From: an uncultured Candidatus Saccharibacteria bacterium
GTDB lineage: Bacteria > Patescibacteriota > Minisyncoccia > Phycocordibacterales > JACOZG01
Length of the DNA: 64,000 nucleotides
Direction of reading: 5' to 3'
NCBI GenBank assembly: GCA_964361825.1
Contig: CAYICB010000002.1
Coordinates: 5,845-69,844 of the forward strand
Shown here: positions 1,990 to 55,340 of the stretch, piece after piece
Layout of the letters: each line of letters begins with the position of its first letter
How positions within the stretch are numbered: position 1 is the stretch's first letter
Program-made: the position numbers and the translations under genes
The notes under the pieces: generated by a model
Told to the model about the DNA's origin: nothing
Seen by the model: only the letters and a program-made list of their open reading frames with translations
Database searches by the model: none

Positions 1990-2280
1990 CTAATCATCCA
2001 CTAAACGCCACAACAAAATCAACGAGGCACAGAGCAGAAATGTTCCACCCCCTATTACCAGCCCGAGCATTAAGTGGCTACCGTTGTTGTGAATGATGCC
2101 AGCTAAGCACAGGCCCGCTCCAACGAGAAAGCCACCCGACACAACTGCGCATAATCCTAGGAAAATGAGCCCGGCGGCAAGGAAACAGCAGATTCTCAAA
2201 AAATCGTAAATCAAATCGTAAATCCTTTTAAGAACCATGATAAACCCCCTTTGTGAAATGACCCAGTTTGTCCAAATCAA
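1990..2280 (-). CDS. hypothetical small membrane protein
   Basis: 96 aa with two to three strongly hydrophobic segments. Confidence 0.4.
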   Translation of the reverse strand: MIWTNWVISQRGFIMVLKRIYDLIYDFLRICCFLAAGLIFLGLCAVVSGGFLVGAGLCLAGIIHNNGSHLMLGLVIGGGTFLLCASLILLWRLVDD

Positions 2281-2319
2281 AAACTACCACATTTAGTGGT
2301 TTTTTGCTAGCATTGTTCA

Positions 2320-2706
2320 GTGAAAAGATTTTTGGAGTGGATTGGCATTAAACAGAAACTAGATAATCACGAGCATCAACCGCCCCTAATAACCGAAGGA
2401 GACTTGTGGTGGTGTGCAATTGGCGAAAATGTCGGTATTGAAGTTGGCGGCAAGAGCAAAGATTTTACTCGTCCAGTAATTGTTCTCAAGAAATTTGGCA
2501 GATTGGGGTTTATGATTGTTCCAACTACCACTAGAGAACGGGAGGGTTCGTGGTATGTAAGCTTCTTGCATAAAGGAATTAAAGAAACCGCAATGTTGAG
2601 TCAGGCGAGAGTTTTAAGTTACAAAAGATTACACTCTAAGATGGGAACGCTGGATGATGAGGACTTTAAAAAGGTAAAAGAGGCGTTTTCACGCCTCTTT
2701 TCCTAA
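2320..2706 (+). CDS. PemK/MazF-like toxin (type II TA endoribonuclease family)
   Basis: Motifs GDLWWCAIGENVG.E.GGK...RPVIVLKK and MIVPTTTRER fit the MazF/PemK/Kid consensus (GdiV..dF.p..G.E..k.RPalVls; vvVvPiTs). Confidence 0.65.
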   Translation: MKRFLEWIGIKQKLDNHEHQPPLITEGDLWWCAIGENVGIEVGGKSKDFTRPVIVLKKFGRLGFMIVPTTTREREGSWYVSFLHKGIKETAMLSQARVLSYKRLHSKMGTLDDEDFKKVKEAFSRLFS

Positions 2707-2800
2707 ATGTCCTCCGCTTGCGCGGAGTCGCGGGATAATCCCGAATGTGGCTTTAGTATAGGGGTTATCAAATTTTAGTCAAGTGGATAAGTGTGGTAAA

Positions 2801-2848
2801 GATTTTTTAGCCAAGAAAAAAGGGCGGCCATTGCTGGCTCGCCCGGGG
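2801..2848. repeat. ~45-bp dispersed repeat, copy 2
   Basis: About 90% identical to 1922-1966, in the same orientation. Confidence 0.6.
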
Positions 2849-2874
2849 TTCGTGTGTGTTTCGGTGTTTGAGAG

Positions 2875-3033
2875 CTACTTCTTTTGTTTGTCTTGCTTCT
2901 CAAGAAATTGAATGACCGCGGTTTCGATTAGGTTTGATAGCGTTCGGTTTTGTGCACGGGCCGTCGCCTTAATTTCATCAGCCATGCCCGTGCGAAATGA
3001 CATAAGGATTTTCTTTGATTTTTTCTTGCCCAT
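2875..3033 (-). CDS. ribbon-helix-helix (CopG/Arc-like) small DNA-binding protein, 52 aa
   Basis: Not in the ORF track (<60 aa). Hand translation of the minus strand gives MGKKKSKKILMSFRTGMADEIKATARAQNRTLSNLIETAVIQFLEKQDKQKK; the SNLIETAV segment is a typical RHH helix pair. Confidence 0.5.
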   Translation of the reverse strand: MGKKKSKKILMSFRTGMADEIKATARAQNRTLSNLIETAVIQFLEKQDKQKK

Positions 3034-3106
3034 ATTTATCCTCCCAAAATCAACTAGTCCAAGCTTTTGCTACCACATTTAGCGCTTTTTTGCTACTCTT
3101 TTCGCC

Positions 3107-4060
3107 ATGTCTCTCTCAATTGGCATTGTGGGCCTACCAAATGTGGGAAAATCGACGCTGTTTAATGCCCTGACGGGGAAGGGCGTGCCGGCGGAGAATT
3201 ATCCGTTTTGTACCATTGATCCATCGGTGGGGATTGTGGGCGTGCCCGACCCTAGGCTGGCTAAATTGGCAGAATTTAGTAAATCGGCCAAGACGATTCC
3301 GGCGGCGATTGAATTTGTTGACATTGCGGGGCTGGTGAAAGGCGCCTCCAAGGGCGAGGGCCTCGGGAATCAATTTCTCTCGCATATTCGTGAAGTGGAT
3401 GCGATTCTGCACATGGTGCGCGTTTTTGCCGACGACAAAGTGACGCATGTGAACAATAAAGTGGATCCTCTAAACGATATCGAAACGATTGGTTTGGAAC
3501 TCATTCTCGCTGACCTCGCCACGGTAGAGAAGCGCCGCAGTAATTTGCAAAAAGAGGTGAAGCGCGGAGATAAAAATGCGATTGCCGAAGACGCCCAATT
3601 GGCCGAAGCTGAAGCATTGCTGAAAGATGGCAAGCCCTCCTTCGCGATTAAACATTTGCACCTCTTGAGCGCCAAACCCGTGTTCTATGTGCTCAACACT
3701 TCAAGTGCAACAGAGAACGCCCCCACTTCATTCGTTGGTAACGAACTTCGCGGGGCAGGAGTGGTGGTAAAAGTTGATCCCGTCTTTGGCGAGGGGCTCG
3801 ATGATCTAATTAAAGCGAGTTATAAATTGCTGGGCCTTGCGACCTATTTTACAACAGGGGAAGATGAAACGCGGGCTTGGACCTTCAAACTCGGTTCCAC
3901 GGCGCCGGAGGCGGCCGCGGCGATTCACACCGACTTCCGCGATAAATTTATTAAAGCCGATGTGATTAATTGGGAAGATCTTCTCGCCGGCGGCCACTGG
4001 CGCTTGGAAGGTAAAGAATACTTGGTAAAAGATGGGGATGTGATTGAGTTTAAAATATAA
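3107..4060 (+). CDS. ychF: ribosome-binding ATPase YchF (Obg-like GTPase family)
   Basis: N-terminal GIVGLPNVGKSTLFNALT P-loop, coiled-coil insert, C-terminal TGS-like region (GDVIEFKI). Confidence 0.9.
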   Translation: MSLSIGIVGLPNVGKSTLFNALTGKGVPAENYPFCTIDPSVGIVGVPDPRLAKLAEFSKSAKTIPAAIEFVDIAGLVKGASKGEGLGNQFLSHIREVDAILHMVRVFADDKVTHVNNKVDPLNDIETIGLELILADLATVEKRRSNLQKEVKRGDKNAIAEDAQLAEAEALLKDGKPSFAIKHLHLLSAKPVFYVLNTSSATENAPTSFVGNELRGAGVVVKVDPVFGEGLDDLIKASYKLLGLATYFTTGEDETRAWTFKLGSTAPEAAAAIHTDFRDKFIKADVINWEDLLAGGHWRLEGKEYLVKDGDVIEFKI

Positions 4061-4065
4061 AAAAA

Positions 4066-4098
4066 GACCGGCACGCATGGTGCCGGGTTGCCTTTTTT
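4066..4098. terminator. rho-independent terminator (hairpin CCGGCAC-GCATG-GTGCCGG plus T6), between convergent genes
   Basis: Perfect 7-bp GC stem followed by a T-run on the plus strand and an A-run upstream. Serves ychF and the convergent ORF. Confidence 0.7.
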
Positions 4099-4107
4099 GA
4101 TTTGGGG

Positions 4108-4554
4108 TTAACAAAATAAAGGCAGATAATTACTCGAGGGTAGTTTAATCTCTGATGACCACCCACTCACACGGAGAACAAAGGTGACATTCGACCTCGA
4201 CTTATCGAGGTAAACCTCCAATGAAGAAAACTCCACCAAGAGGTTAGAGACTACCAATCCAGTTTGAGTTTCTGGATCGAAAGACACTCCTTTGTTCGGT
4301 CGAAGAAATAAGTCAAAATCCACGGTGACATTGCGTGGGATCAAAGAACGCGGCAGGTTGTGAGGAAAATTAATTTGCGGATAATGAGGGGTAACATTAT
4401 CACTGATGGTGTTTTCTACCACCAAACTCACAAACCAACCTTCTTGCCCTTTGTGATAGGGGAAAATTACAAACCTTACTTTTGGGTATAGTTTGCCGCC
4501 CTCCACCTCTACCTTCGGTATTATGCCCCAATCCGAATCTTTTCCAATGTGCAT
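4108..4554 (-). CDS. hypothetical protein
   Basis: 148-aa ORF, no recognisable motif. Confidence 0.35.
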   Translation of the reverse strand: MHIGKDSDWGIIPKVEVEGGKLYPKVRFVIFPYHKGQEGWFVSLVVENTISDNVTPHYPQINFPHNLPRSLIPRNVTVDFDLFLRPNKGVSFDPETQTGLVVSNLLVEFSSLEVYLDKSRSNVTFVLRVSGWSSEIKLPSSNYLPLFC

Positions 4555-4643
4555 ATCGCACCTCCTTTTCTGGTTTAATAAATATCAAAAAGAGGGGTGG
4601 TTGTCAATGGTTTGTTTTGTTTGATCGGTGTTATCATTTAAAA

Positions 4644-5195
4644 ATGCAAAATTCACGCTTTCTCAAATGGATCTTGGCTCTCGCTATTGTGATTGTTCTT
4701 AACCTCTTTTTCAATTACGCCATCCACTTGGTTTATGAAGCGCCACAGTGGGAAAATTTTTGTCCAACCAAACAAGTAAATATTATGCCTCAAACCAAAG
4801 AAGCTTGTTTAGATGAAGGCGGTAGTTGGACAGAGGAAAATGGTGAAATGATAACGACAATACCTCTTTTTGGTCCTGGAGATTCGGCCCCAAGGCGTAC
4901 TAGCTATTGCGATGTTAACTTCACCTGTGACCGAGAATTCGACAGTTATCAATCAGTTTATAATCGCAATGTTTTCTTGATCTTAGTGGGAGCTGGCCTA
5001 GCAACACTGTTGCTTAGCCTTTTTGTTGCCCTCACTTCACCTGTTTCGCTCGGCCTCTCGCTTGGCGGCGTGCTCTCAATAATTGTTGGTTCAATTCGTT
5101 ATTGGTCGGAGATGCAAGATTACCTCCGCGTCATTCTCCTCGCCGTCGCTCTTATTCTCCTCATCTGGCTCGGCATCAAGAAGTTTAGGGAATAA
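4644..5195 (+). CDS. hypothetical membrane protein (probable start at 4644 rather than 4482)
   Basis: The in-frame ATG at 4644 avoids overlap with the convergent ORF. N-terminal TM helix and two C-terminal TM helices. Confidence 0.45.
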   Translation: MQNSRFLKWILALAIVIVLNLFFNYAIHLVYEAPQWENFCPTKQVNIMPQTKEACLDEGGSWTEENGEMITTIPLFGPGDSAPRRTSYCDVNFTCDREFDSYQSVYNRNVFLILVGAGLATLLLSLFVALTSPVSLGLSLGGVLSIIVGSIRYWSEMQDYLRVILLAVALILLIWLGIKKFRE

Positions 5196-5201
5196 ATCAC
5201 C

Positions 5202-5909
5202 CTAACTGTTGAACATCGGATGTTCAACAATCTCTGCCAGATCTTTGGCCCCACTTGTTTGTACCCATTCGTGATAATCATCACTTTTTGCAAACTGTTC
5301 GCGAATTGGCTCGGTGTGTAGGAGGTTTGACCAACGGTTCTTAGAAAGGAAGTCTTGATAACTAGACCAAGGATATTCATGGGCCTTATTTCTCCAGCCA
5401 GTTAGCTCACAACAATTCCGATGAATATAAGCTGAGGCATATAACAGCTGTTCATTGTCGCCGATATGCGAAAATTTAAAAGCCCCCTGAAATAAGTAAC
5501 CACTCGCTTGGTATTTGGTATTAAAATATTTGGTGTAACTGTTACCCACTCTTTGCATATACTTCGATATTCCTCCCTCCTTTACTTCTTCTGCGATCAA
5601 GTGAAAATGATTAGGCATCAAGGCGAAGGCAATGAGACGCAGTCCGCGTTCTCGGGTGATTTTTTCTTCCATTGCCCTGTCAGTGTTGAACATCCGATGT
5701 TCAACATATCGAGTGACAAGTCGACCGGGGTTGTCGATTGTTTCTGGCCCTTGAAAATAAAGAAGGGAAAGCAAAAACCGAGCTCGATCACGATCGTCGA
5801 GAAAAATTTTCCTCTTTAAAACCCCGCGGTTGTAAATATGATAAAATTCACCGGGAGCTAATGTTTGCACTCGTTTCATGGTGTCTGTTGAACATCCGAT
5901 GTTCAACAT
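5202..5909 (-). CDS. IS200/IS605-like Y1 (HUH) tyrosine transposase, RAYT-like
   Basis: FYHIYNRG ... MPNHFHLI (HuH motif) ... catalytic-Tyr region YIHRN ... YPWSSY. This is the standard Y1 transposase / REP-associated tyrosine transposase layout. Both gene ends and one internal site carry the 23-bp palindrome. Confidence 0.75.
   Translation of the reverse strand: MLNIGCSTDTMKRVQTLAPGEFYHIYNRGVLKRKIFLDDRDRARFLLSLLYFQGPETIDNPGRLVTRYVEHRMFNTDRAMEEKITRERGLRLIAFALMPNHFHLIAEEVKEGGISKYMQRVGNSYTKYFNTKYQASGYLFQGAFKFSHIGDNEQLLYASAYIHRNCCELTGWRNKAHEYPWSSYQDFLSKNRWSNLLHTEPIREQFAKSDDYHEWVQTSGAKDLAEIVEHPMFNS
5207..5229. repeat. REP-like 23-bp palindrome TGTTGAACATCGGATGTTCAACA (copy at 3' end of RAYT gene)
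   Basis: Perfect 11+1+11 palindrome. Identical copies at 5684, 5886 and 14442; a compensatory variant at 49814. Confidence 0.8.
5684..5706. repeat. REP-like palindrome copy (inside RAYT coding sequence)
   Basis: TGTTGAACATCCGATGTTCAACA, translated in frame as VEHRMFN. Confidence 0.8.
5886..5908. repeat. REP-like palindrome copy (at 5' end of RAYT gene)
   Basis: TGTTGAACATCCGATGTTCAACA, overlapping the annotated start codon region. Confidence 0.8.
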
Positions 5910-5943: not shown

Positions 5944-8900
5944 CTATCTCGTCAACTCCTTCATCCCTTCTACCACGAGGCTGGGTTCGCCGTTTCTTAG
6001 CGAGAGTTTGCCTTTAATCGCCACGCATTTTTCGGGTTCGAGGAGTTCGCGACATTCGGCAAAAGTGCGCGAGAAAATTACGAGCTCAATGGAGTCGTTG
6101 AAGTCGGTGAGTTTAGCAAAGCACATCCGGTCGCCCTTCTTAGTGTTAATCAGTTTAATTTCTTCTAACACGCCGGCCACCACGGTGGCGGTGCCGTCTT
6201 TCAAACCTTTGATTTTAGTAATCGAGCGACCAATCGCTTCAATTTTCTCGCGGAATTCTTCGAGCGGATGACCAGAAACATAGAGACCGAGTAGCTCTTT
6301 TTCCCAAGCGAGTTTTTCTTTAGCCGAGATATCGGGCGCCGGTTTGAGTTTGAAGTCGGGCACACTCGCTTTATCGGTCATCGCCGAAAAGAGTGAGTCT
6401 TGATTGCCACCCAATTTGCCACGCTCGCGATTATACTCAAGCGCCGCGTCTAAATTGGCGAGCAAGGTCCCTCTTTCTCCTGCCTTAGAGTTGGGAGAGC
6501 TAAAACAATCCATTGCGCCCGATTTAATCAGCGCTTCGAGTGATTTTTTATTCAAATTACGATGAGTAATGCGCTCAAGCAGGTCGCTAAAACTTTTGAA
6601 CGGGCCTCTCGTTTTGCGCTCACGCACAATCACTTCAGCAATCTCGGCCCCCAAGTTTTTGATGGTCAGCAAACCGAAACTAATTTTATCGCCGTCGGCA
6701 CGGGGCACCCTTGGGTCTGGGTCTTTATGGGTGACCCTTGCCGGCGCTTTGATGACCGTAAAGTCGCTGAAACTCTCATTGATATCTGGCGGTAAAACGG
6801 GGATGCCGAGCAACTTGCACTCGCTAATAATCTCGGCGATCGTTTCGATATTGCCGCTCTCGGCCGAGAGCGCGGCGGTCATATATTCACCCGGATAATT
6901 AGCCTTGAGATAAGCTGTTTGATACGCCACGCGACCATAACTCGCGGCATGCGCCTTGTTGAAGCCGTAACCCTGGAAGGGCTCAAAAAGATTCCAAATT
7001 TCTTCGGCTTTTTCTTTAGTTAAATCACTGTGTTTGATACAACCTTCAACAAACATCACATGCTGTTTCTTCATTTCTTCCGGAATCTTTTTACCGACGG
7101 CTTTGCGGAATTTATCCACTTCGCCCCAGTTGTACCCGGCCACTTCGATGGCCGTCATCAGGAGATCGTCTTGATAGACGAGCACGCCAAAGGTTGGCGC
7201 GAGATAACTCTTCATCTTCGGATGGAGAAATTTTGTTGGCTTCTTGCCATGTTTCCGCGCAATATACTCATAAATATTGTCCATCGGCCCCGGACGATAA
7301 AGCGCCACCATGACATTAATATCTTCCACGCGCGTGGGCTTAAGTTCCTTCAGCGCGCGCGTCATGCCGGTGCCATTAAGCTGAAACAGGCCAATGGTGT
7401 GACCGGCGGTAAGCATGATAAAAGTTTTTTTGTCATCGAGGGGAATTTTTTCAATATCAATTTTCTCACCTCGAGTTTTCTCGATAATTCTAATCGCGCC
7501 TTCGATAATCGAGAGGTTTCTAATGCCGAGAAAGTCGAATTTCAAGAGTCCTGCCTCTTCGACCACATACATATCAAATTGCGTAATAATCTTGCCGCCC
7601 TTCGGGTCGAATTGGAGGGGCACGAAGTCGGTGAGCGGCGTGGGCGAGATCACCACACCCGCAGCATGCACCGAGATGTGCCGAGCATTGCCTTCAATTT
7701 TCTTGGCGAGATCAATAATTTCTTTGGTTGCAGTATCGGTATCATAAAGCTGTTTTAATTCTGGTGTAATCTCAAGCGCGTGATCAATCGTCATCGGGAA
7801 GCCTTGCGAACCCATCGGGATTAAATTAGAGATTTTATCGCCCACGGCATAAGGGTGACCGAGCGCTCGCGCCACATCACGCACCGCGCCCCGCGCCATC
7901 ATCGAGCCGAAAGTACCAATTTGCGCCACATGATCTTCACCATACTTTTTCTTTACATAATCAATCACTTCATCGCGTCGACGATCGGCAAAGTCCATGT
8001 CGATATCGGGCGGGCTCGGGCGATCGGGATTAAGAAAGCGCTCGAAGGGGAGATTATAATAAAGCGGGTCAACACTAGAAATACCAATGAGATGCGAGGT
8101 AAAACAGCCGGCCGCCGAGCCTCGAGTATTGGTAAAGATGCCTTGGGCGCGGGTAAAGTTGAAGATGTCAGCCACCACGAGAAAGTAGGGAGCGTAACCC
8201 TTGTTGATAATAACTTCGAGCTCGTAAGCGAGGCGAGTGGCAGCTTCTTCTTTGCGATCGGGATTGCGTTCGAGATATTCGGGCAAGCGACTTTCGGCAA
8301 ATTTTCGTAGTTCTTCTTCTGGTGTCTCGGCGAGGGTAAGTTGAAATTTGGGAAAGACCCATTTGCCAAGCTCCAGTTTGAGATCACAAGCCTCGGCAAT
8401 TTTGAGGGTGTTATCGACGGCTTCAGGCGCGTCTTTAAAATGCTCGCGCATGGTGGCCTCGTCAATCAGTGAGAAATCATCACCGGCCTTGGTATAGCGT
8501 TTATTATCATCGGCATCAGTATTTGTACCAATCGCCACAAGCGTATCATGAGCCTTCGTGTCGTCTGGTTGTAAGTAGTGAGCATCTTGAGTAGCAACCA
8601 AGGGAATTCCCAATTCGTGAGCTAGTTTGATCGCTTGTTCTTTAAGCTCCGGATAGCGTTCAATTTTGGGGTGATGAAAAATTTCAATAAAATAATTTTC
8701 TGGGCCAAAAATTTCTCGATATTCATTAGCAATCTTTTTTGCTTCCTCATAATTCCGCGCCAGAATAGCGCGGGACAATTCACTGGCCATACAACCAGAT
8801 AAGCAAATAACCCCCTCGTGGTGCTCGCGCATCAGCTCTTTATCAATCCGTGGTTTATAATAATAACCTTCGAGGTTGGCTTTGGTCACGAGCTTAACCA

Positions 8901-41506: not shown

Positions 41507-41539
41507 AAGCTCGAGCCAAGTAAGGCCCGAGCTTTTTTA
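41507..41539. terminator. rho-independent terminator (GCTCGAGCC..GGCCCGAGC plus T6), shared by convergent genes
   Basis: Imperfect 9-bp stem followed by TTTTTT; lies between the DUF397 gene and the fmt 3' end. Confidence 0.5.
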
Positions 41540-42406
41540 TTGTCCGCGTTTAAAGTCTTCCCAACTCATTTCTTTACGGCCTTCGGGAATCACGCTATCT
41601 AAAATAAATTGGTCAGCGGCGAGATGGGCGGCGATAATTTTGACCCGGATGTTTTTACCGTGACGATGAGTGAAAAAATAAGTCCCGGGCCAAGGTTGAT
41701 AAGCGAGAAATTTGCGGTAATTCTCAAGTGGATCAGCGTTTAGATCAAGCTGACCATCTTCTTTGGTAATTTTCTTGGTAAAAGTGGCTTGGGTGTGATC
41801 CTGCGCGGAAGGTTTAACCTTGCCAGCCAGATAGTCCGGTAAAATTTCGAGAAAAAGCTCGGCGCCAAGTTTGGCTAACTCGTCTCGCAATTCGGGATAA
41901 GATTTTTCTTCCGCCAAATTTTGACTTTTTATTTTTGCCTTTTGACTTATTATCGGCCCATGATCCACTTCTTCATCCATCTGCATAATCGTTACACCGG
42001 GCACGGCACCAGTAAGAATGGTGTTTTGAATTGGCGCCGGACCACGAAAGGCGGGGAGGAGTGAGGGGTGGATATTGAGCGTACCGTGCTTAGGTAAATC
42101 AATTACAGCTTTGGGTAAAATCTTACCGTAAGAAGCAACGAGGGCCAGATCGGGGAGGGTCTCAAGGACGCACCTTGGGTCTGGGTTTTTAAGGTGCGTC
42201 CTTTGGATTCGGTCAGGTTGAATAAAAGATAAATTGTTTGCCAAACAAAAAGTCTTGACCGGTGGCGGTGTTAACTCCTGTTTTCTCCCTGAGATAGCGT
42301 CGGGAGTGGTAATTACGGTCACTGGTCTAACTCCTTGTGCTAAGAGATAATCGAGAACCGCCACGGCAAAATCATCGGTACCAAAAAAAATTAATTTAGG
42401 TGTCAT
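41537..42406 (-). CDS. fmt: methionyl-tRNA formyltransferase
   Basis: IFFGTDDFAV; HPSLLPAFRGPAPIQ. Confidence 0.9.
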   Translation of the reverse strand: MTPKLIFFGTDDFAVAVLDYLLAQGVRPVTVITTPDAISGRKQELTPPPVKTFCLANNLSFIQPDRIQRTHLKNPDPRCVLETLPDLALVASYGKILPKAVIDLPKHGTLNIHPSLLPAFRGPAPIQNTILTGAVPGVTIMQMDEEVDHGPIISQKAKIKSQNLAEEKSYPELRDELAKLGAELFLEILPDYLAGKVKPSAQDHTQATFTKKITKEDGQLDLNADPLENYRKFLAYQPWPGTYFFTHRHGKNIRVKIIAAHLAADQFILDSVIPEGRKEMSWEDFKRGQ

Positions 42407-52206: not shown

Positions 52207-52827
52207 ATGAAACTCGAGCATCATGCCTATTTAATAATCAGTGCGGAGGAAACAACTTTAATTGCCGACTTAAAAAAAGACTACCCCGAAGCCAATCATC
52301 AAAAATTTGAGCGCTTGGGGATTGAAGATAGTCGCGCGCTCGCGCTGGATCAAAGCCAAACCAATTGGCATGGGCACAAAAAAATTTTTATTCTTGAGAT
52401 TAATGATGCCACCATTGAGGCCCAAAACGCTTTGCTAAAAATGCTAGAGGAACCCACGGCCGAAACTCACTTTTTCCTCATCGTGCCAAATGCCGAAATT
52501 TTGCTCCCCACCGTCCGCTCCCGTCTCCAAACCCTAAGGGTAACCCTTAAAGACCCAAGGTGCGACCTTAATACCCAAACCGCCCAAGAATTCCTCGCCC
52601 TGATCCCAGCCAAACGCCTCGAATGGCTAAAAAATACCGATTTACCAAACAATTTTCTCGACCAGCTCGAAGTGGCAATGTTCAAACCCCAAGGTCGCAC
52701 CTTAAAAACCCAAAATTCAAGGTGCGACCTTAAATCATGGCCTGACCTCACCCTCGCCCGCCGTCACTGGCGAACCCCCGGCGCCAGCCACAAACTCTTG
52801 CTAGAACACTTAGCGGTGAGTTGCTAA
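52207..52827 (+). CDS. holB: DNA polymerase III delta' subunit-like (short)
   Basis: HAYLI..., ALLKMLEEP, LLPTVRSRLQ motifs. The C-terminal ~90 aa is encoded by palindromic repeat DNA. Confidence 0.65.
   Translation: MKLEHHAYLIISAEETTLIADLKKDYPEANHQKFERLGIEDSRALALDQSQTNWHGHKKIFILEINDATIEAQNALLKMLEEPTAETHFFLIVPNAEILLPTVRSRLQTLRVTLKDPRCDLNTQTAQEFLALIPAKRLEWLKNTDLPNNFLDQLEVAMFKPQGRTLKTQNSRCDLKSWPDLTLARRHWRTPGASHKLLLEHLAVSC
52554..52735. repeat. cluster of short palindromic repeats (AAGGTGCGACCTTAA / AAGGTCGCACCTTAA; CCCTAAGGG)
   Basis: Three copies (52554-52571, 52688-52714, 52717-52735) in both orientations within the 3' part of the holB ORF. Confidence 0.6.
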
Positions 52828-52934
52828 AATCGACAAAAAACCCTTGACAAGAGGGGTGCGTTATGATAGCTTGTCTCGCATTGGGGTTGTGTATATCCCA
52901 AAATGATTTAGCTCTTTGAAATGGAGAAAATTGT

Positions 52935-53666
52935 GTGAACACAAACCAAGAAAGGACGCGAGAAATTTTTCGAGGGTCTTTTGAGGAATGCCTTGAGCAC
53001 TACAGTCGGGGTATCGAAGAGGAGGCACCAAAGTTTTCCAACAAAGCCAATGATGCAAGAAGGCCTCTAGCCAACTTCTGCTCTGTAGAAGTCAGCTGTG
53101 TCTATAATTGGCTGAGGGGAAAAACGTGCCCAACAGGAGAGCCCCGCCTAAAGACCACCTGCTTTCTCGATCTCCATGGCTACCGAATAGTTGAGTTCGA
53201 AAATCTCGAGCCAACTATTCGCCACTTTGGAGAGTTGTGGGGGTATGGAGTTTTAGATAGAGCTCAGGTCACAAGAATCCTTGCCTATGTCATGGACCAC
53301 GCCGTGTTTCGGGTCATTAACGGCAGAGAGTCCGTTGGCCAAGAACGAAAAGAAAGGATGTGGAAAACTTGGCTTGAGAACAAAAAGGCACTGAAAACCA
53401 AAAAAGAGGAGTGGCTCGTACTTTTAGGCCTTGACGCCTTAAAGCCAAACACGGTAGCCATCGCAACGGCCAAAACGGCGACCGCACTAACCTCTCTATT
53501 GGAGCTTTGCAAACCGTCAGATTTTTCCGCAGAAGATCGCGTTTTGTTGTCTTCATTACATGATCAACTGAACAGGTTTTCTTCGGAATCTCTGGGGGTG
53601 GAAAAATTCTACCCCCCAAAACTGATTACCAGTGATGAGGGGGTGGTGCATGAAACAGCAGTATGA
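52935..53666 (+). CDS. hypothetical protein (first gene of a three-gene operon)
   Basis: 243 aa, no recognisable family. Overlaps the next ORF. Confidence 0.4.
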   Translation: MNTNQERTREIFRGSFEECLEHYSRGIEEEAPKFSNKANDARRPLANFCSVEVSCVYNWLRGKTCPTGEPRLKTTCFLDLHGYRIVEFENLEPTIRHFGELWGYGVLDRAQVTRILAYVMDHAVFRVINGRESVGQERKERMWKTWLENKKALKTKKEEWLVLLGLDALKPNTVAIATAKTATALTSLLELCKPSDFSAEDRVLLSSLHDQLNRFSSESLGVEKFYPPKLITSDEGVVHETAV

Positions 53667-53916
53667 AGCAATGGTCGAGAAGGTGATCGCGAACGGTAAA
53701 CATGGTTCATATGCCGTTGCTACACATAAAAAACTGGGCAAAATCACCTTTTCCCTAGACCACAAAGTTTGGAAAGAGAAAGAAACTCCAGACGCAGGTA
53801 GTCTGGTAATTCTTCAGAGTGTTCGAAAGAAGCGCGCCGGTTGGCGTGCTGAACAAGCGCGGTTCTTCACACCAGAAGATCAGCAAACAGAAAAGAGAAA
53901 GGAAAACAGCGAATGA
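53632..53916 (+). CDS. hypothetical small protein
   Basis: 94 aa (or about 88 from MKQQY). Overlapping starts and stops suggest translational coupling. Confidence 0.35.
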   Translation: MMRGWCMKQQYEAMVEKVIANGKHGSYAVATHKKLGKITFSLDHKVWKEKETPDAGSLVILQSVRKKRAGWRAEQARFFTPEDQQTEKRKENSE

Positions 53917-54764
53917 ACGGGAATGCAGGGATGAAAACGAAAAAGACCGGTCGAACAATCAAGGTCAGGATCGACAATCTGGACATCAACCTCTTTGTGC
54001 GAGAGTCATTGGACCACGATCATGCCATCAAGATCGCTCTCATGATGGAGAATGGTGTGAAGTTCCAACCCATTCAAATCACAGAAGGTCTGGTGGTGGT
54101 TGATGGTCGCCACAGGATCGAAGCGCACAAAATCAATAACCAAACTGATATTTGGGCAGAGGTGGTGACGGTCGAAGGAGAGACTGACCTCATTAGAAGG
54201 GCGTATCTCGCCAATGTGGGTGGCGCCCTACCCCCAACCGTCGCTGACACGGAGCACACCATCCGCTTGTTGCTTGAGCGCCAAGTACCAAAAAAGCAAA
54301 TTGGGGAGTTACTCTCAATGCCTCCCGACCTAGCGAAAAGGTATGTGGACAATGTGCAATCTCGTCTGAATCGGGCAAAACTGATGAGGGCGGTGGAGGC
54401 GGTAACTCAAGGCGGTCTCAATGTTCCTCAAGCGGCAGAAAATCACGGGGTTGATCAAAAAAAACTTCGCGATTTCTTATCTGGCAACAAACGCAAGCAA
54501 AAGGTAAATGCCATCGAAGAAGTCAAGAAGGGACTCACCAGGAGCCACCAATCCTTGAGTTTGCGCAACGCCAATGTGTTCCGAACTCTTTTGAAAAAAG
54601 TTCAGGATGGGGACATCTCGTTCAAACAAGCAGAGGATGTTTTTGAGCACGTTGATCACATGCGCAAAAGCGCGGAGCGGGCTTTGAACGACTGGAAATC
54701 AAGGTTTCGCGCCCTCACGGCACCAGACAATGAAAACCCGATCGTGAAAAACAAAACCGCTTAG
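53913..54764 (+). CDS. ParB/Srx-like nuclease-domain protein
   Basis: IKVRIDNLDINLFVRESLD..., GLVVVDGRHRIEAHK match the ParB N-terminal (ParBc) domain including the DGxHR box. C-terminal helical region. No adjacent ParA. Confidence 0.6.
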   Translation: MNGNAGMKTKKTGRTIKVRIDNLDINLFVRESLDHDHAIKIALMMENGVKFQPIQITEGLVVVDGRHRIEAHKINNQTDIWAEVVTVEGETDLIRRAYLANVGGALPPTVADTEHTIRLLLERQVPKKQIGELLSMPPDLAKRYVDNVQSRLNRAKLMRAVEAVTQGGLNVPQAAENHGVDQKKLRDFLSGNKRKQKVNAIEEVKKGLTRSHQSLSLRNANVFRTLLKKVQDGDISFKQAEDVFEHVDHMRKSAERALNDWKSRFRALTAPDNENPIVKNKTA

Positions 54765-54800
54765 CGTGATGAAACGCAACACACAATAACTCCTAACAAT

Positions 54801-54838
54801 TCCCCGTGGTCTGCGGACTGCGGGGGATTTTTTTGTCT
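54801..54838 (+). terminator. rho-independent terminator (CCCCG...CGGGG plus T7)
   Basis: GC stem followed by GATTTTTTTG after the ParB-like gene. A second hairpin (AACCACTC...GAGTGGTT, 54856-54888) lies downstream of the convergent RelE gene. Confidence 0.55.
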
Positions 54839-54891
54839 CAAAAAAGATAAAATGAACCACTCCGCACCGAAAATACAGAGTGGTTAGTTGC

Positions 54892-55152
54892 TTAGCGATA
54901 AGTGTGGTCCGACTTTCGCTCAATGTCGGTGACTTTGATCAACTTTTCGTTCACCAAAACAACATAAGTAATTCGGTATTCACCAACACGGCGGCGCCAA
55001 GTGTCGATTTCGCCCTTAACTTTCCTGATGTCACCAAAATAAGGATCCTCTATTATATCCTCCAAAACTAAAAGTATTTTGCCGGCACTACTTTTTGGCA
55101 AACGCTTTAGACTTTTTTGAGCCTGATCGGCGATGTGAATTAGCCAACTCAT
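54892..55152 (-). CDS. RelE/ParE-family toxin
   Basis: 86 aa. GEYRITYVVLVNEKLIKVTDIERKSDHTY matches the RelE consensus (GdYRiiY......i.Vl.ihRkdiY). Confidence 0.7.
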   Translation of the reverse strand: MSWLIHIADQAQKSLKRLPKSSAGKILLVLEDIIEDPYFGDIRKVKGEIDTWRRRVGEYRITYVVLVNEKLIKVTDIERKSDHTYR

Positions 55153-55285
55153 TTTTTAATTGAGTTAAAGATACATAATTACCGCAGTTGATTTCTGTCA
55201 ATCCACGCTCATGTCGCCGCCGTTCAGCAGGAGTAAATTCCTCGAGAGCTATCGCAATTTTTTTAACCAATAAAGCATTTTTCAC
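55088..55285 (-). CDS. putative antitoxin of the RelE module (overlaps toxin start by 64 nt in another frame)
   Basis: 65-aa ORF (GTG start) immediately upstream of and overlapping the toxin. Family not recognised. Confidence 0.35.
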   Translation of the reverse strand: MKNALLVKKIAIALEEFTPAERRRHERGLTEINCGNYVSLTQLKNELANSHRRSGSKKSKAFAKK

Positions 55286-55340
55286 GCTTTCAATGTTAGC
55301 ACATTTTCTCTTTTTACAAAACTATATTAATATACCTAGC

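Follow-up and report, generated by a model that had tools for sequence, protein, structure and literature searches.

Results

Gene content of the holB-frr interval

The window analyzed in this study is a 64-kb stretch of DNA from an uncultured bacterium of the candidate phyla radiation (CPR), and its interval 52828-55340, which extends from the base after the holB stop codon to the base before the frr start codon, is occupied by a 2.5-kb insert. This insert contains three genes on the plus strand, here named A, B and C and referred to together as the triad, and a convergent RelE toxin-antitoxin (TA) pair. We found that A, B and C constitute a translationally coupled operon with its own promoter and terminator, and that the same three genes recur as an ordered set in about 33 CPR genomes. 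The components of the operon are listed below with their positions in the window.

52844-52872, plus strand: proposed A-B-C promoter, with a -35 box TTGACA (52844-52849), a 17-nt spacer and an extended -10 element TGaTAGCTT (52864-52872)
52935-53666, plus strand: gene A, 243 amino acids (aa), GTG start; predicted XRE/lambda-repressor-type helix-turn-helix (HTH) protein, apparently with two tandem domains and a helical C-terminal tail
53650-53916, plus strand: gene B, 88 aa; predicted five-stranded beta-barrel of the cold-shock/S1 oligonucleotide/oligosaccharide-binding (OB) type with a C-terminal helix; alternative GTG start at 53632
53913-54764, plus strand: gene C, 283 aa; probable ParB/sulfiredoxin (Srx)-fold N-domain, HTH motifs (at about residues 112-190) and helical C-terminal region
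54798-54838, plus strand: intrinsic terminator of A-B-C, a hairpin (54798-54829) with a 14-pair stem containing 7 G-C pairs, followed by TTTTTGT

The preliminary description of this locus had reported three overlapping, apparently coupled open reading frames (ORFs) of 243, about 90 and 283 aa, closed by a terminator at 54801-54838. All of these elements are present, and the second ORF was refined to 88 aa. The most likely start codon of B is the ATG at 53650 rather than the GTG at 53632 given in the ORF list, because the homologues start at the corresponding position and a Shine-Dalgarno sequence (GAGGGGG) precedes it. With this start, A and B overlap by 17 nt, and the ATGA at 53913-53916 is common to the stop codon of B and the start codon of C.

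The GC content of the triad (0.45-0.50) equals the window mean (0.470 +/- 0.019), and that of the TA pair is 0.406, which is among the lowest 4% of 400-bp windows. The compositional comparison suggested at the outset therefore singles out the TA pair, and we rejected a compositional island for the triad, whose GC content is that of the genome.

Insertion into a tight gene junction

Relatives of the window were gathered by a metagenome scan with its frr gene (frr 43-56% identical), and their gene order is murA-mreB-holB-frr-rseP-proS-mreB2. In at least five distinct contigs (L045, L049/L050, L051, L052 and L055), holB abuts frr with a gap of at most 100 bp or an overlap; in L057/L058, the spacing is about 1.1 kb. 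A, B and C were found at the holB-frr site in none of the relatives' contigs. Since holB of the relatives adjoins frr without the triad, the 2.5-kb block represents a real insertion into an ancestrally tight junction. The proposal that the interval is an island was thus borne out, and the triad is not a universal occupant of this position in the relatives. Two contigs from Hainich groundwater assemblies, L056 and L048, are 94-98% identical to the window and share its C-TA-frr arrangement, and therefore belong to the same species; the 98% identity was reached with contigs in ERZ1292623. In L047, 3.7 kb of unrelated genes lie between holB and frr (2276-5870), consisting of a ClpP-like gene on the minus strand and genes for two long low-complexity, probably secreted proteins. 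Because L047 holds this different cargo, we regard the holB-frr junction as a recurrent insertion hot spot.

None of the other triad loci contains the TA pair, which also differs from the triad in composition, and the two are therefore considered independent of each other. In this interpretation, a CPR genome (Patescibacteria, Paceibacteria-type) would have received two independent accessory modules at its holB-frr junction, which was ancestrally tight.

Distribution and divergence of the triad

Homologues of C fell into 68 clusters with 37-53% identity and lengths of 174-283 aa (nearly all 258-283 aa), which bear the source names Candidatus Zambryskibacteria or "ParB N-terminal domain-containing protein". 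When 185,579 species-representative genomes were scanned for a C pattern, 34 loci were obtained, all from CPR bacteria except two distant ones, and the CPR hosts comprise Paceibacterota and Zambryski-, Nomura-, Lloyd-, Giovannoni-, Uhr-, Magasanik- and Doudnabacteria. In about 33 of the species-representative genomes, the ORFs directly 5' of C are matched by the profiles of A and B, the order always being A-B-C and the strand the same, and this order holds in nearly every locus for which upstream DNA is available, also on other long contigs; the co-occurrence of the three genes, which had been raised as a point to check, is therefore established. Several of the metagenome-assembled genomes that carry the triad (records of L006-L037) are labeled Saccharibacteria, Gammaproteobacteria or Methylomirabilis, and these are probably mislabeled or mixed bins.

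The genes flanking the triad vary from genome to genome, although they are of the housekeeping type throughout the approximately 33 loci (RNase III, SMC, NusB, helicases, aminoacyl-tRNA synthetases, DnaB, ClpP, MraW and TsaD). Four loci (L011, L018, L026 and L031) share the arrangement dnaE-rnhB-nusB-rnc ... smc; three of them have the cassette in the rnc-smc interval, whereas L026 has it in the nusB-rnc interval, a shift of one gene. Pairwise identities among these four loci are 75-82% for rnc, 77-82% for nusB and 66-79% for smc, and 33-43% for A, 56-72% for B and 49-62% for C. The triad is thus accessory, patchy and variable in position, and diverges far faster than its syntenic neighbors. 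In L037 (Doudnabacteria contig CAWBGV010000037.1), C appears to be split: its N-terminal part (1512-1856) follows A and B, and a frameshifted C-terminal part (7856-8496) lies approximately 6 kb downstream, which suggests insertion into, or decay of, the cassette.

These data bear on the possibility that the triad is a vertically inherited, lineage-specific housekeeping factor for chromosome organization or segregation, such as an SMC-loading or replication-linked nucleoprotein complex. Genes of DNA transactions do occur beside it, namely holB in the window, dnaE, rnhB, nusB, rnc and smc in four genomes, an xerC/D-type recombinase in three, a canonical parB in L007 and dnaB in one; the neighborhood is kept in L011, L018, L026 and L031, and the GC content is host-like. 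However, such neighbors are expected by chance in gene-dense CPR genomes, only about 34 of the 185,579 species-representative genomes were matched, and the triad is missing from the holB-frr site in at least five distinct relative contigs (contigs, not whole genomes). It also evolves two- to three-fold faster than its neighbors, and its insertion point shifts even inside the syntenic group of four. We therefore consider a housekeeping role very unlikely.

Protein C has a probable, divergent ParB/Srx-type N-domain

The assignment of C was based on profile comparisons and conserved motifs. C matched two ParB-like families of PHROG (1.4e-6 and 2.2e-5), and its N-domain profile gave 14 matches in the PDB, all of them to ParB, Srx, SerK or SbnI (best E 5e-3). 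These include H. pylori ParB 4umk (5e-3), plant sulfiredoxin 6ky4 (0.015), 7bnk/7bnr, SerK MJ1094, Spo0J 1vz0, human Srx and SbnI. The ParB/Srx N-domain recognized in this ORF by the preliminary description is thus supported, weakly at the sequence level, and approximately 20 of the 68 C homologues carry a precomputed PF02195 annotation.

C contains the motifs NLFVR (residues 26-30), DGRHRIEA (64-71), N101, PPT..DTEHT (107-116), GDI (233-235) and DWKxRF (260-265), and the residues V29-R30, G65-R-H-R68, N101, P108, D112, T116 and R264 are invariant in the alignment. In the register of the ParB boxes, N26..R30 corresponds to NPxQPR, G65-R68-A71 to the G-R-A of GERRxRA, and N101 to the N of ENLQ. 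Of these residues, G65, R68 and N101 do not vary among 38 homologues, most of which also keep A71. DGRHRIEA aligns with GERRLRA of ParB and with GCHRYEA of plant Srx. The CTP-type GERRxR patch is altered in C (G-R-H-R-I-E-A), with the first Arg replaced by His and the third by Glu, and an Ala precedes N101. Because two of the three CTP-binding arginines are replaced, the P-motif of C is Srx-like.

As in the ParB-type architecture, the N-domain of C is followed by HTH motifs. HTH_psq, HTH_23 and HTH_28 were matched in 7-16 of 38 homologues (best 6e-7; about 16 for HTH_psq and HTH_23), with the psq/HTH_23-like motif at about residues 155-190, and a GerE/DevR-type HTH was matched in the PDB by the C profile with E 2e-3 at profile positions 102-155 (C residues at about 112-165). 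A conserved helical tail lies C-terminal to these motifs. A nuclease catalytic motif was not identified in C.

C had been described as having no ParA partner, and a search of the 64-kb window and of the flanks fetched for 40+ loci found no ORF with the ParA Walker motif KGGxGK[ST]. No LG-[RK]-GL ParA-interaction motif is visible in the C alignment, on which no dedicated motif search was run. L007 encodes a separate 335-aa ParB of the GERRLRA type (4635-5642), 88 bp 3' of the triad on the same strand, and no ParA-type Walker motif occurs anywhere in this 11-kb locus. We rejected the identification of C as a canonical ParB or Noc, with which it does not cluster, on the basis of its GRHRIEA motif, the lack of ParA and the coexistence of this distinct, true ParB in L007.

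Proteins A and B have recognizable folds

The preliminary description had found no recognizable family for the two partner ORFs; this holds at the level of sequence families, but both proteins show recognizable folds, A of the HTH type and B of the OB type. The AlphaFold2 model of A, built from a 72-sequence alignment, is all-helical, with a mean predicted local distance difference test (pLDDT) score of 89.3, and contains a five-helix domain of the lambda-repressor/XRE type. Its fold matches are exclusively XRE/Cro-C1/POU-type HTH domains, and its nearest structural neighbors include restriction-modification (RM) controller proteins, Aca proteins, HigA, MqsA, CapH and ImmR; there was no whole-chain structural match in BFVD. 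Pfam scans of individual A homologues gave scattered HTH_17, HTH_3 and HTH_23 matches. In our reading, A is apparently a tandem-HTH protein (FCGVxxxTVxRWL, followed by ELIGYGLLS..) with a helical hairpin tail. A word-index protein search with A returned only A itself, and an exhaustive HMMER search recovered homologues in 559 clusters at 50% identity, 260 of them at E<=1e-10 and all approximately 240-270 aa long.

The predicted model of B (pLDDT 85.5) is a five-stranded barrel with a helix, and the barrel is superposable on cold-shock domain (CSD) and S1 domains. We conclude from this model that B adopts a cold-shock/S1-type OB fold, although neither a Pfam nor an NCBIfam CSD or S1 match was obtained, the only match being to eIF-1A at E 0.05. 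The segments GKHGxYAV and ITFSL of B resemble ribonucleoprotein (RNP) motifs by eye only. In L028 and L029, A and B are fused as one 328-aa protein.

Promoter and leader of the operon

The perfect TTGACA at 52844-52849, noted earlier as -35-like, is confirmed and is part of an arrangement, TTGAC(A) plus TGnTAnnnT, that occurs 63-126 nt 5' of gene A in 25 of 28 homologous loci; this recurrence gives the promoter comparative support. A consensus promoter scan made no call at 52844-52872, because the -10 hexamer matches at only three of six positions. We propose that the element is a strong sigma-70-type promoter. Candidate operator palindromes lie over the -35 box, for example GTCAACTTGAC in L003, L004 and L011 and CTTGACAAG in the window, and the A proteins of L003, L004 and L011 are of the common KWFNSK subtype. 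Two further features lie between the promoter and the body of gene A.

52879-52934, plus strand: presumed leader of approximately 56 nt, counted from a presumed transcription start, with a 5' hairpin TTGGGG...CCCAA, the conserved motif CTTTGAAA at 52915-52922 and a Shine-Dalgarno sequence GGAG
52933-52938, plus strand: start-stop GTGTGA, an out-of-frame start codon followed immediately by a stop codon, overlapping the GTG start of A (52935)

Leader lengths across the homologous loci are 28-91 nt. We rejected a structured RNA, since no Rfam family was found in the window and the leaders have no common structure. A candidate motif, yTTTGA(A/C)A (window 52913-52927), is located directly 5' of the Shine-Dalgarno sequence of gene A in most triad loci, for example as GTTGTTTGAAAGGAGG in L018, L020 and L031. 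Its role could be that of an operator, of a site in the leader RNA for protein B with its OB fold, or simply of an enhancement of the ribosome-binding site. An ATGTGA overlies the GTG start of gene A in 12 of 28 loci, among them L001, L003, L007, L009, L012, L014, L016, L017, L018, L024 and L030, and variants are found in the window and L006 (GTGTGA) and in L023 and L031 (ATGTGC). The Shine-Dalgarno sequence of the ATGTGA loci is spaced for the out-of-frame ATG, and a conserved start-stop mini-ORF of this kind could throttle the translation of A.

Possible links to defense systems, phages and mobile elements

PADLOC-DB 2.0 models gave no matches at E<=1 to A, B, C, the toxin or the antitoxin, and the 118 proteins encoded in the flanks showed no defense enrichment, with SMC cross-hits and two candidate families only. 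A known defense system was rejected on these two results. No modification enzyme is present in the cassette.

In tblastn searches with C, neither the 50,697 phage records nor the 72,556 plasmid records gave a match, and we therefore rejected a plasmid or phage gene identifiable by direct similarity. At the cassette ends of all 28 loci, the best repeat found in a search for terminal inverted repeats and target duplications corresponded to the shuffled expectation, and the 118 flanking proteins of approximately 33 loci include no transposase or phage structural protein and only two integrases, both of the XerC/D type. A transposon-like element was likewise rejected, the ends lacking repeats beyond chance and the flanks lacking a transposase.

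Three IMG/VR contigs (L041-L043) encode full-length C-like proteins with 26-30% identity and the same motifs in phage replication modules, where these genes adjoin vWA, MoxR-type AAA, PD-(D/E)XK and AAA_24 genes, without A and B. A fourth, L040 (IMG/VR, 107 kb), carries an A-C pair without B among mostly unknown genes with only weak phage (PHROG) matches, and the more distant relatives L038 and L039 have a prophage-like region and an integrase with an excisionase as their surroundings. These contigs speak for an origin of the triad from CPR mobile elements (phages or plasmids), of which it would be cargo or a remnant: a KorA/KorB-like or partition-type module for maintenance and regulation that has stayed in, or moves between, chromosomes. 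The order of an HTH gene, a gene for a small protein and a ParB-like gene also recalls korA-incC-korB. The empty tblastn search, the lack of terminal repeats and target duplications, and flanks free of transposases and phage structural genes speak against such an origin, as do the fully host-like GC content of the triad and the absence of A and B beside the phage homologues, and we regard it as quite unlikely.

The toxin-antitoxin pair and the holB palindromes

The second module of the insert lies on the minus strand, convergent with the triad.

54855-54885, minus strand: terminator-like hairpin 3' of the toxin gene
54892-55152, minus strand: RelE-type toxin, 86 aa, a module separate from the triad
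55088-55285, minus strand: putative antitoxin, 65 aa, a role suggested by its position only

The toxin matches Pfam ParE_toxin PF05016 with 27 bits (cut-off 23), PHROG 1213 RelE-like with 2.4e-15 and, in the PDB, P. horikoshii aRelE 1wmi with 5e-6 and also RelE3 3bpq. Since its score exceeds the curated threshold of the profile and a small partner ORF lies upstream, it belongs to the RelE/ParE group, and the convergent RelE pair of the preliminary description is thereby upheld, for the toxin by these matches and for the antitoxin by position. The 65-aa putative antitoxin gave no family match. The two ORFs overlap by 65 nt (55088-55152) compared with the usual 1-8 nt, which points either to a true toxin start further downstream or to an unusual, basic tail of the antitoxin.

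A palindromic 13-mer is found upstream of the insert.

52557, 52691 and 52719 (span 52557-52731), no strand assigned: three copies of AAGGTGCGACCTT inside the 3' coding region of holB, probably not part of the cassette

The preliminary description had placed the upstream boundary of the island at this cluster, a claim that did not hold: the copies lie 96-270 bp inside holB, away from the boundary, and a near-identical hairpin pair occurs inside another gene at 42164-42203. In view of these sister hairpins, the repeats are not specific to the junction. No copy of AAGGTGCGACCTT was found in other triad loci, and its interpretation as a parS-like site was rejected, since it is specific to the window and recurs in an unrelated gene. 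Hairpin-type repeats of the form AAGGnCGCACCTT-N14/15-AAGGTGCGnCCTT are located in frame at 52557-52569 and 52691-52731 (holB) and at 42164-42203 (ORF 41537-42406, minus strand), with 10 matches at <=2 mismatches against 1.4 expected, and may be small palindromic elements inserted into genes.

Discussion

The interval between holB and frr had been put forward as a candidate undescribed accessory system with a role in defense, in plasmid or phage maintenance, or in connection with DNA modification. An undescribed coupled operon is indeed present, and we found no description of this triad in the literature, but none of the three roles was shown. An accessory or conflict role is plausible, supported by the rapid divergence of the triad, its variable position and the distant C homologues in phage replication modules.

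We tentatively suggest that the triad is an autoregulated, nucleoside triphosphate (NTP)-gated DNA-binding accessory module, a reading to which we give somewhat less than an even chance. For the triad as a whole, we infer complex formation, NTP binding, autoregulation and a physiological output. A, B and C would form a three-protein DNA-binding complex with C as its core. C would follow the ParB plan, with a nucleotide-gated N-domain, a DNA-binding center and a dimerizing tail; because its P-motif is Srx-like (GRHRIEA, not GERRxRA), the ligand of C would more likely be ATP or a different NTP than CTP bound in the manner of canonical ParB. A would recognize specific DNA sequences and is probably the repressor of the operon, acting at the candidate palindromes over the -35 box, by analogy with KorA as the partner of KorB. 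B would act together with A, to which it is fused in some genomes, and probably contacts single-stranded nucleic acid or the operon leader. A survey whose text makes no mention of Patescibacteria documents divergent ParB-fold orphans whose specificity is not for CTP (bioRxiv 10.1101/2025.10.10.680097).

Several observations weigh against an NTP-gated DNA-binding module. At the level of C, the profile scores behind the ParB assignment are weak (E of about 5e-3 in the PDB and 1e-6 in PHROGs), and the current Pfam ParBc model matched none of 38 proteins (C and 37 homologues) at E<=0.01; C is assigned at the level of fold and motif, not of family. At the level of DNA and RNA sites, 28 cassettes and their surroundings yielded no conserved 7+7 palindrome of the parS type, the candidate palindromes at the -35 box vary from locus to locus, and no secondary structure is shared by the leaders, the 5' hairpin of the window not being conserved. 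The three-protein model is not universal, since B is absent in L024 and L040. A regulatory complex with no evident target besides itself leaves the maintenance of the cassette unexplained, and the very rapid divergence of the triad is more typical of conflict systems.

The last point leads to the reading of the triad as a conflict system, either anti-phage defense or TA-like addiction, in which A, as an XRE-type protein, would play the part of controller or antitoxin and C, with B, that of effector. The ParB/Srx-fold domain would then be an NTP-dependent nuclease or NTPase toxin that is freed when A is titrated or degraded, and a 2026 preprint (10.64898/2026.05.05.722872) reports a ParB-fold ATPase toxin. 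The small, self-contained cassette with an XRE-type first gene would suit such a system, and the structural neighbors of A include RM controllers, Aca, HigA, MqsA, CapH and ImmR. The spread is patchy and the position variable, the copy in the window being located in a hot spot next to a RelE TA pair; the divergence is far above that of syntenic housekeeping neighbors, distant full-length C homologues occur in phage replication modules, and an A-C pair is found on an IMG/VR contig. However, A, B and C have no PADLOC match at E<=1, and the flanks are of the housekeeping type, with no defense enrichment among 118 proteins. C, with two HTH motifs and a ParB-like plan, would be an unusual toxin and contains no identified nuclease catalytic motif, and A, with 243 aa and two HTH domains, is large for an antitoxin. 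On balance, we consider a conflict system rather doubtful.

Taken together, the architecture of C and the lack of an effector motif favor the DNA-binding complex, whereas divergence, patchiness and the hot-spot location favor the conflict and mobile-element readings. An undescribed CPR-specific conflict or maintenance system, composed of an Srx-pocket ParB-fold protein, a two-HTH specificity subunit and an OB subunit and moving between chromosomal sites, and possibly phages, without a recognizable recombinase, appears unlikely to us. If it were true, the triad would add a functional class not known before to the ParB-fold NTP switches; an NTP-gated clamp by which incoming DNA is silenced or attacked would be one example.

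ParB-fold proteins are versatile nucleotide switches, and most of their orphan members have no known partners or roles. The triad offers a clean, recurrent case, in which a divergent ParB/Srx-fold protein is encoded in an operon with two previously unclassified families, one of which comprises hundreds of 50%-identity clusters, all of this in the poorly understood CPR bacteria. Regulators are very scarce in these bacteria, and few accessory systems are known from them; the triad represents a rare, rapidly evolving and relocating gene set in their tiny genomes. Were its activity defined, a large, uncultured part of bacterial diversity would gain a regulatory principle or a conflict system not known before, and families A and B could be named and annotated.

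KorA-KorB of the IncP plasmid RK2 is a pair consisting of a small HTH repressor and a ParB-family DNA clamp. The gene order is korA-incC-korB, in which IncC is a ParA homologue, KorA has 101 aa and KorB keeps the GERRxR CTP motif. Like this system, the triad has an HTH gene first and a ParB-like gene last in one operon that is autoregulated in KorA-KorB and, as we propose by analogy, in the triad; C also has a ParB-like three-part plan, and no chromosome-type parS is evident. The two differ in the middle gene (the ParA homologue IncC versus the OB-fold protein B), in the first protein (the 101-aa KorA versus the 243-aa, two-HTH A) and in the motif of the last (GERRxR in KorB, GRHRIE in C). No sequence similarity between them was detected. 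The resemblance, like that to orphan ParB-type regulators, is proposed as a functional analogy and does not place the triad in either family.

C resembles sulfiredoxin, SerK and SbnI in its nucleotide motif. VDGRHRIEAH of C aligns with FSGCHRYEAH of plant sulfiredoxin 6ky4 (E 0.015), and SerK (MJ1094) and SbnI were also matched. Unlike C, whose architecture is clearly that of a DNA-binding protein, these proteins are enzymes without HTH and C-terminal domains, and the catalytic Cys of Srx is Arg in C.

Apart from the triad, the TA pair is an ordinary RelE-type module. It is like type II RelBE/ParDE systems in its 86-aa toxin, its match to archaeal RelE and its small, overlapping upstream ORF, and unlike them in the unusually long overlap (65 nt) and in its antitoxin, which matches no known family.

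Other close counterparts of C are the orphan or divergent ParB-like regulators VirB, Noc, BisD, StrR-type proteins and ParT, which combine a ParB N-domain with an HTH and have no ParA partner, and whose divergent branch is associated with mobile elements (bioRxiv 10.1101/2025.10.10.680097). C has no detectable similarity to them beyond fold motifs, and none of them is CPR-specific or has been reported with XRE-type and cold-shock-like OB partners. Thus, orphan divergent ParB-fold proteins as such are known; what is new is the triad, in which such a protein is accompanied by the two unnamed partner families A and B.

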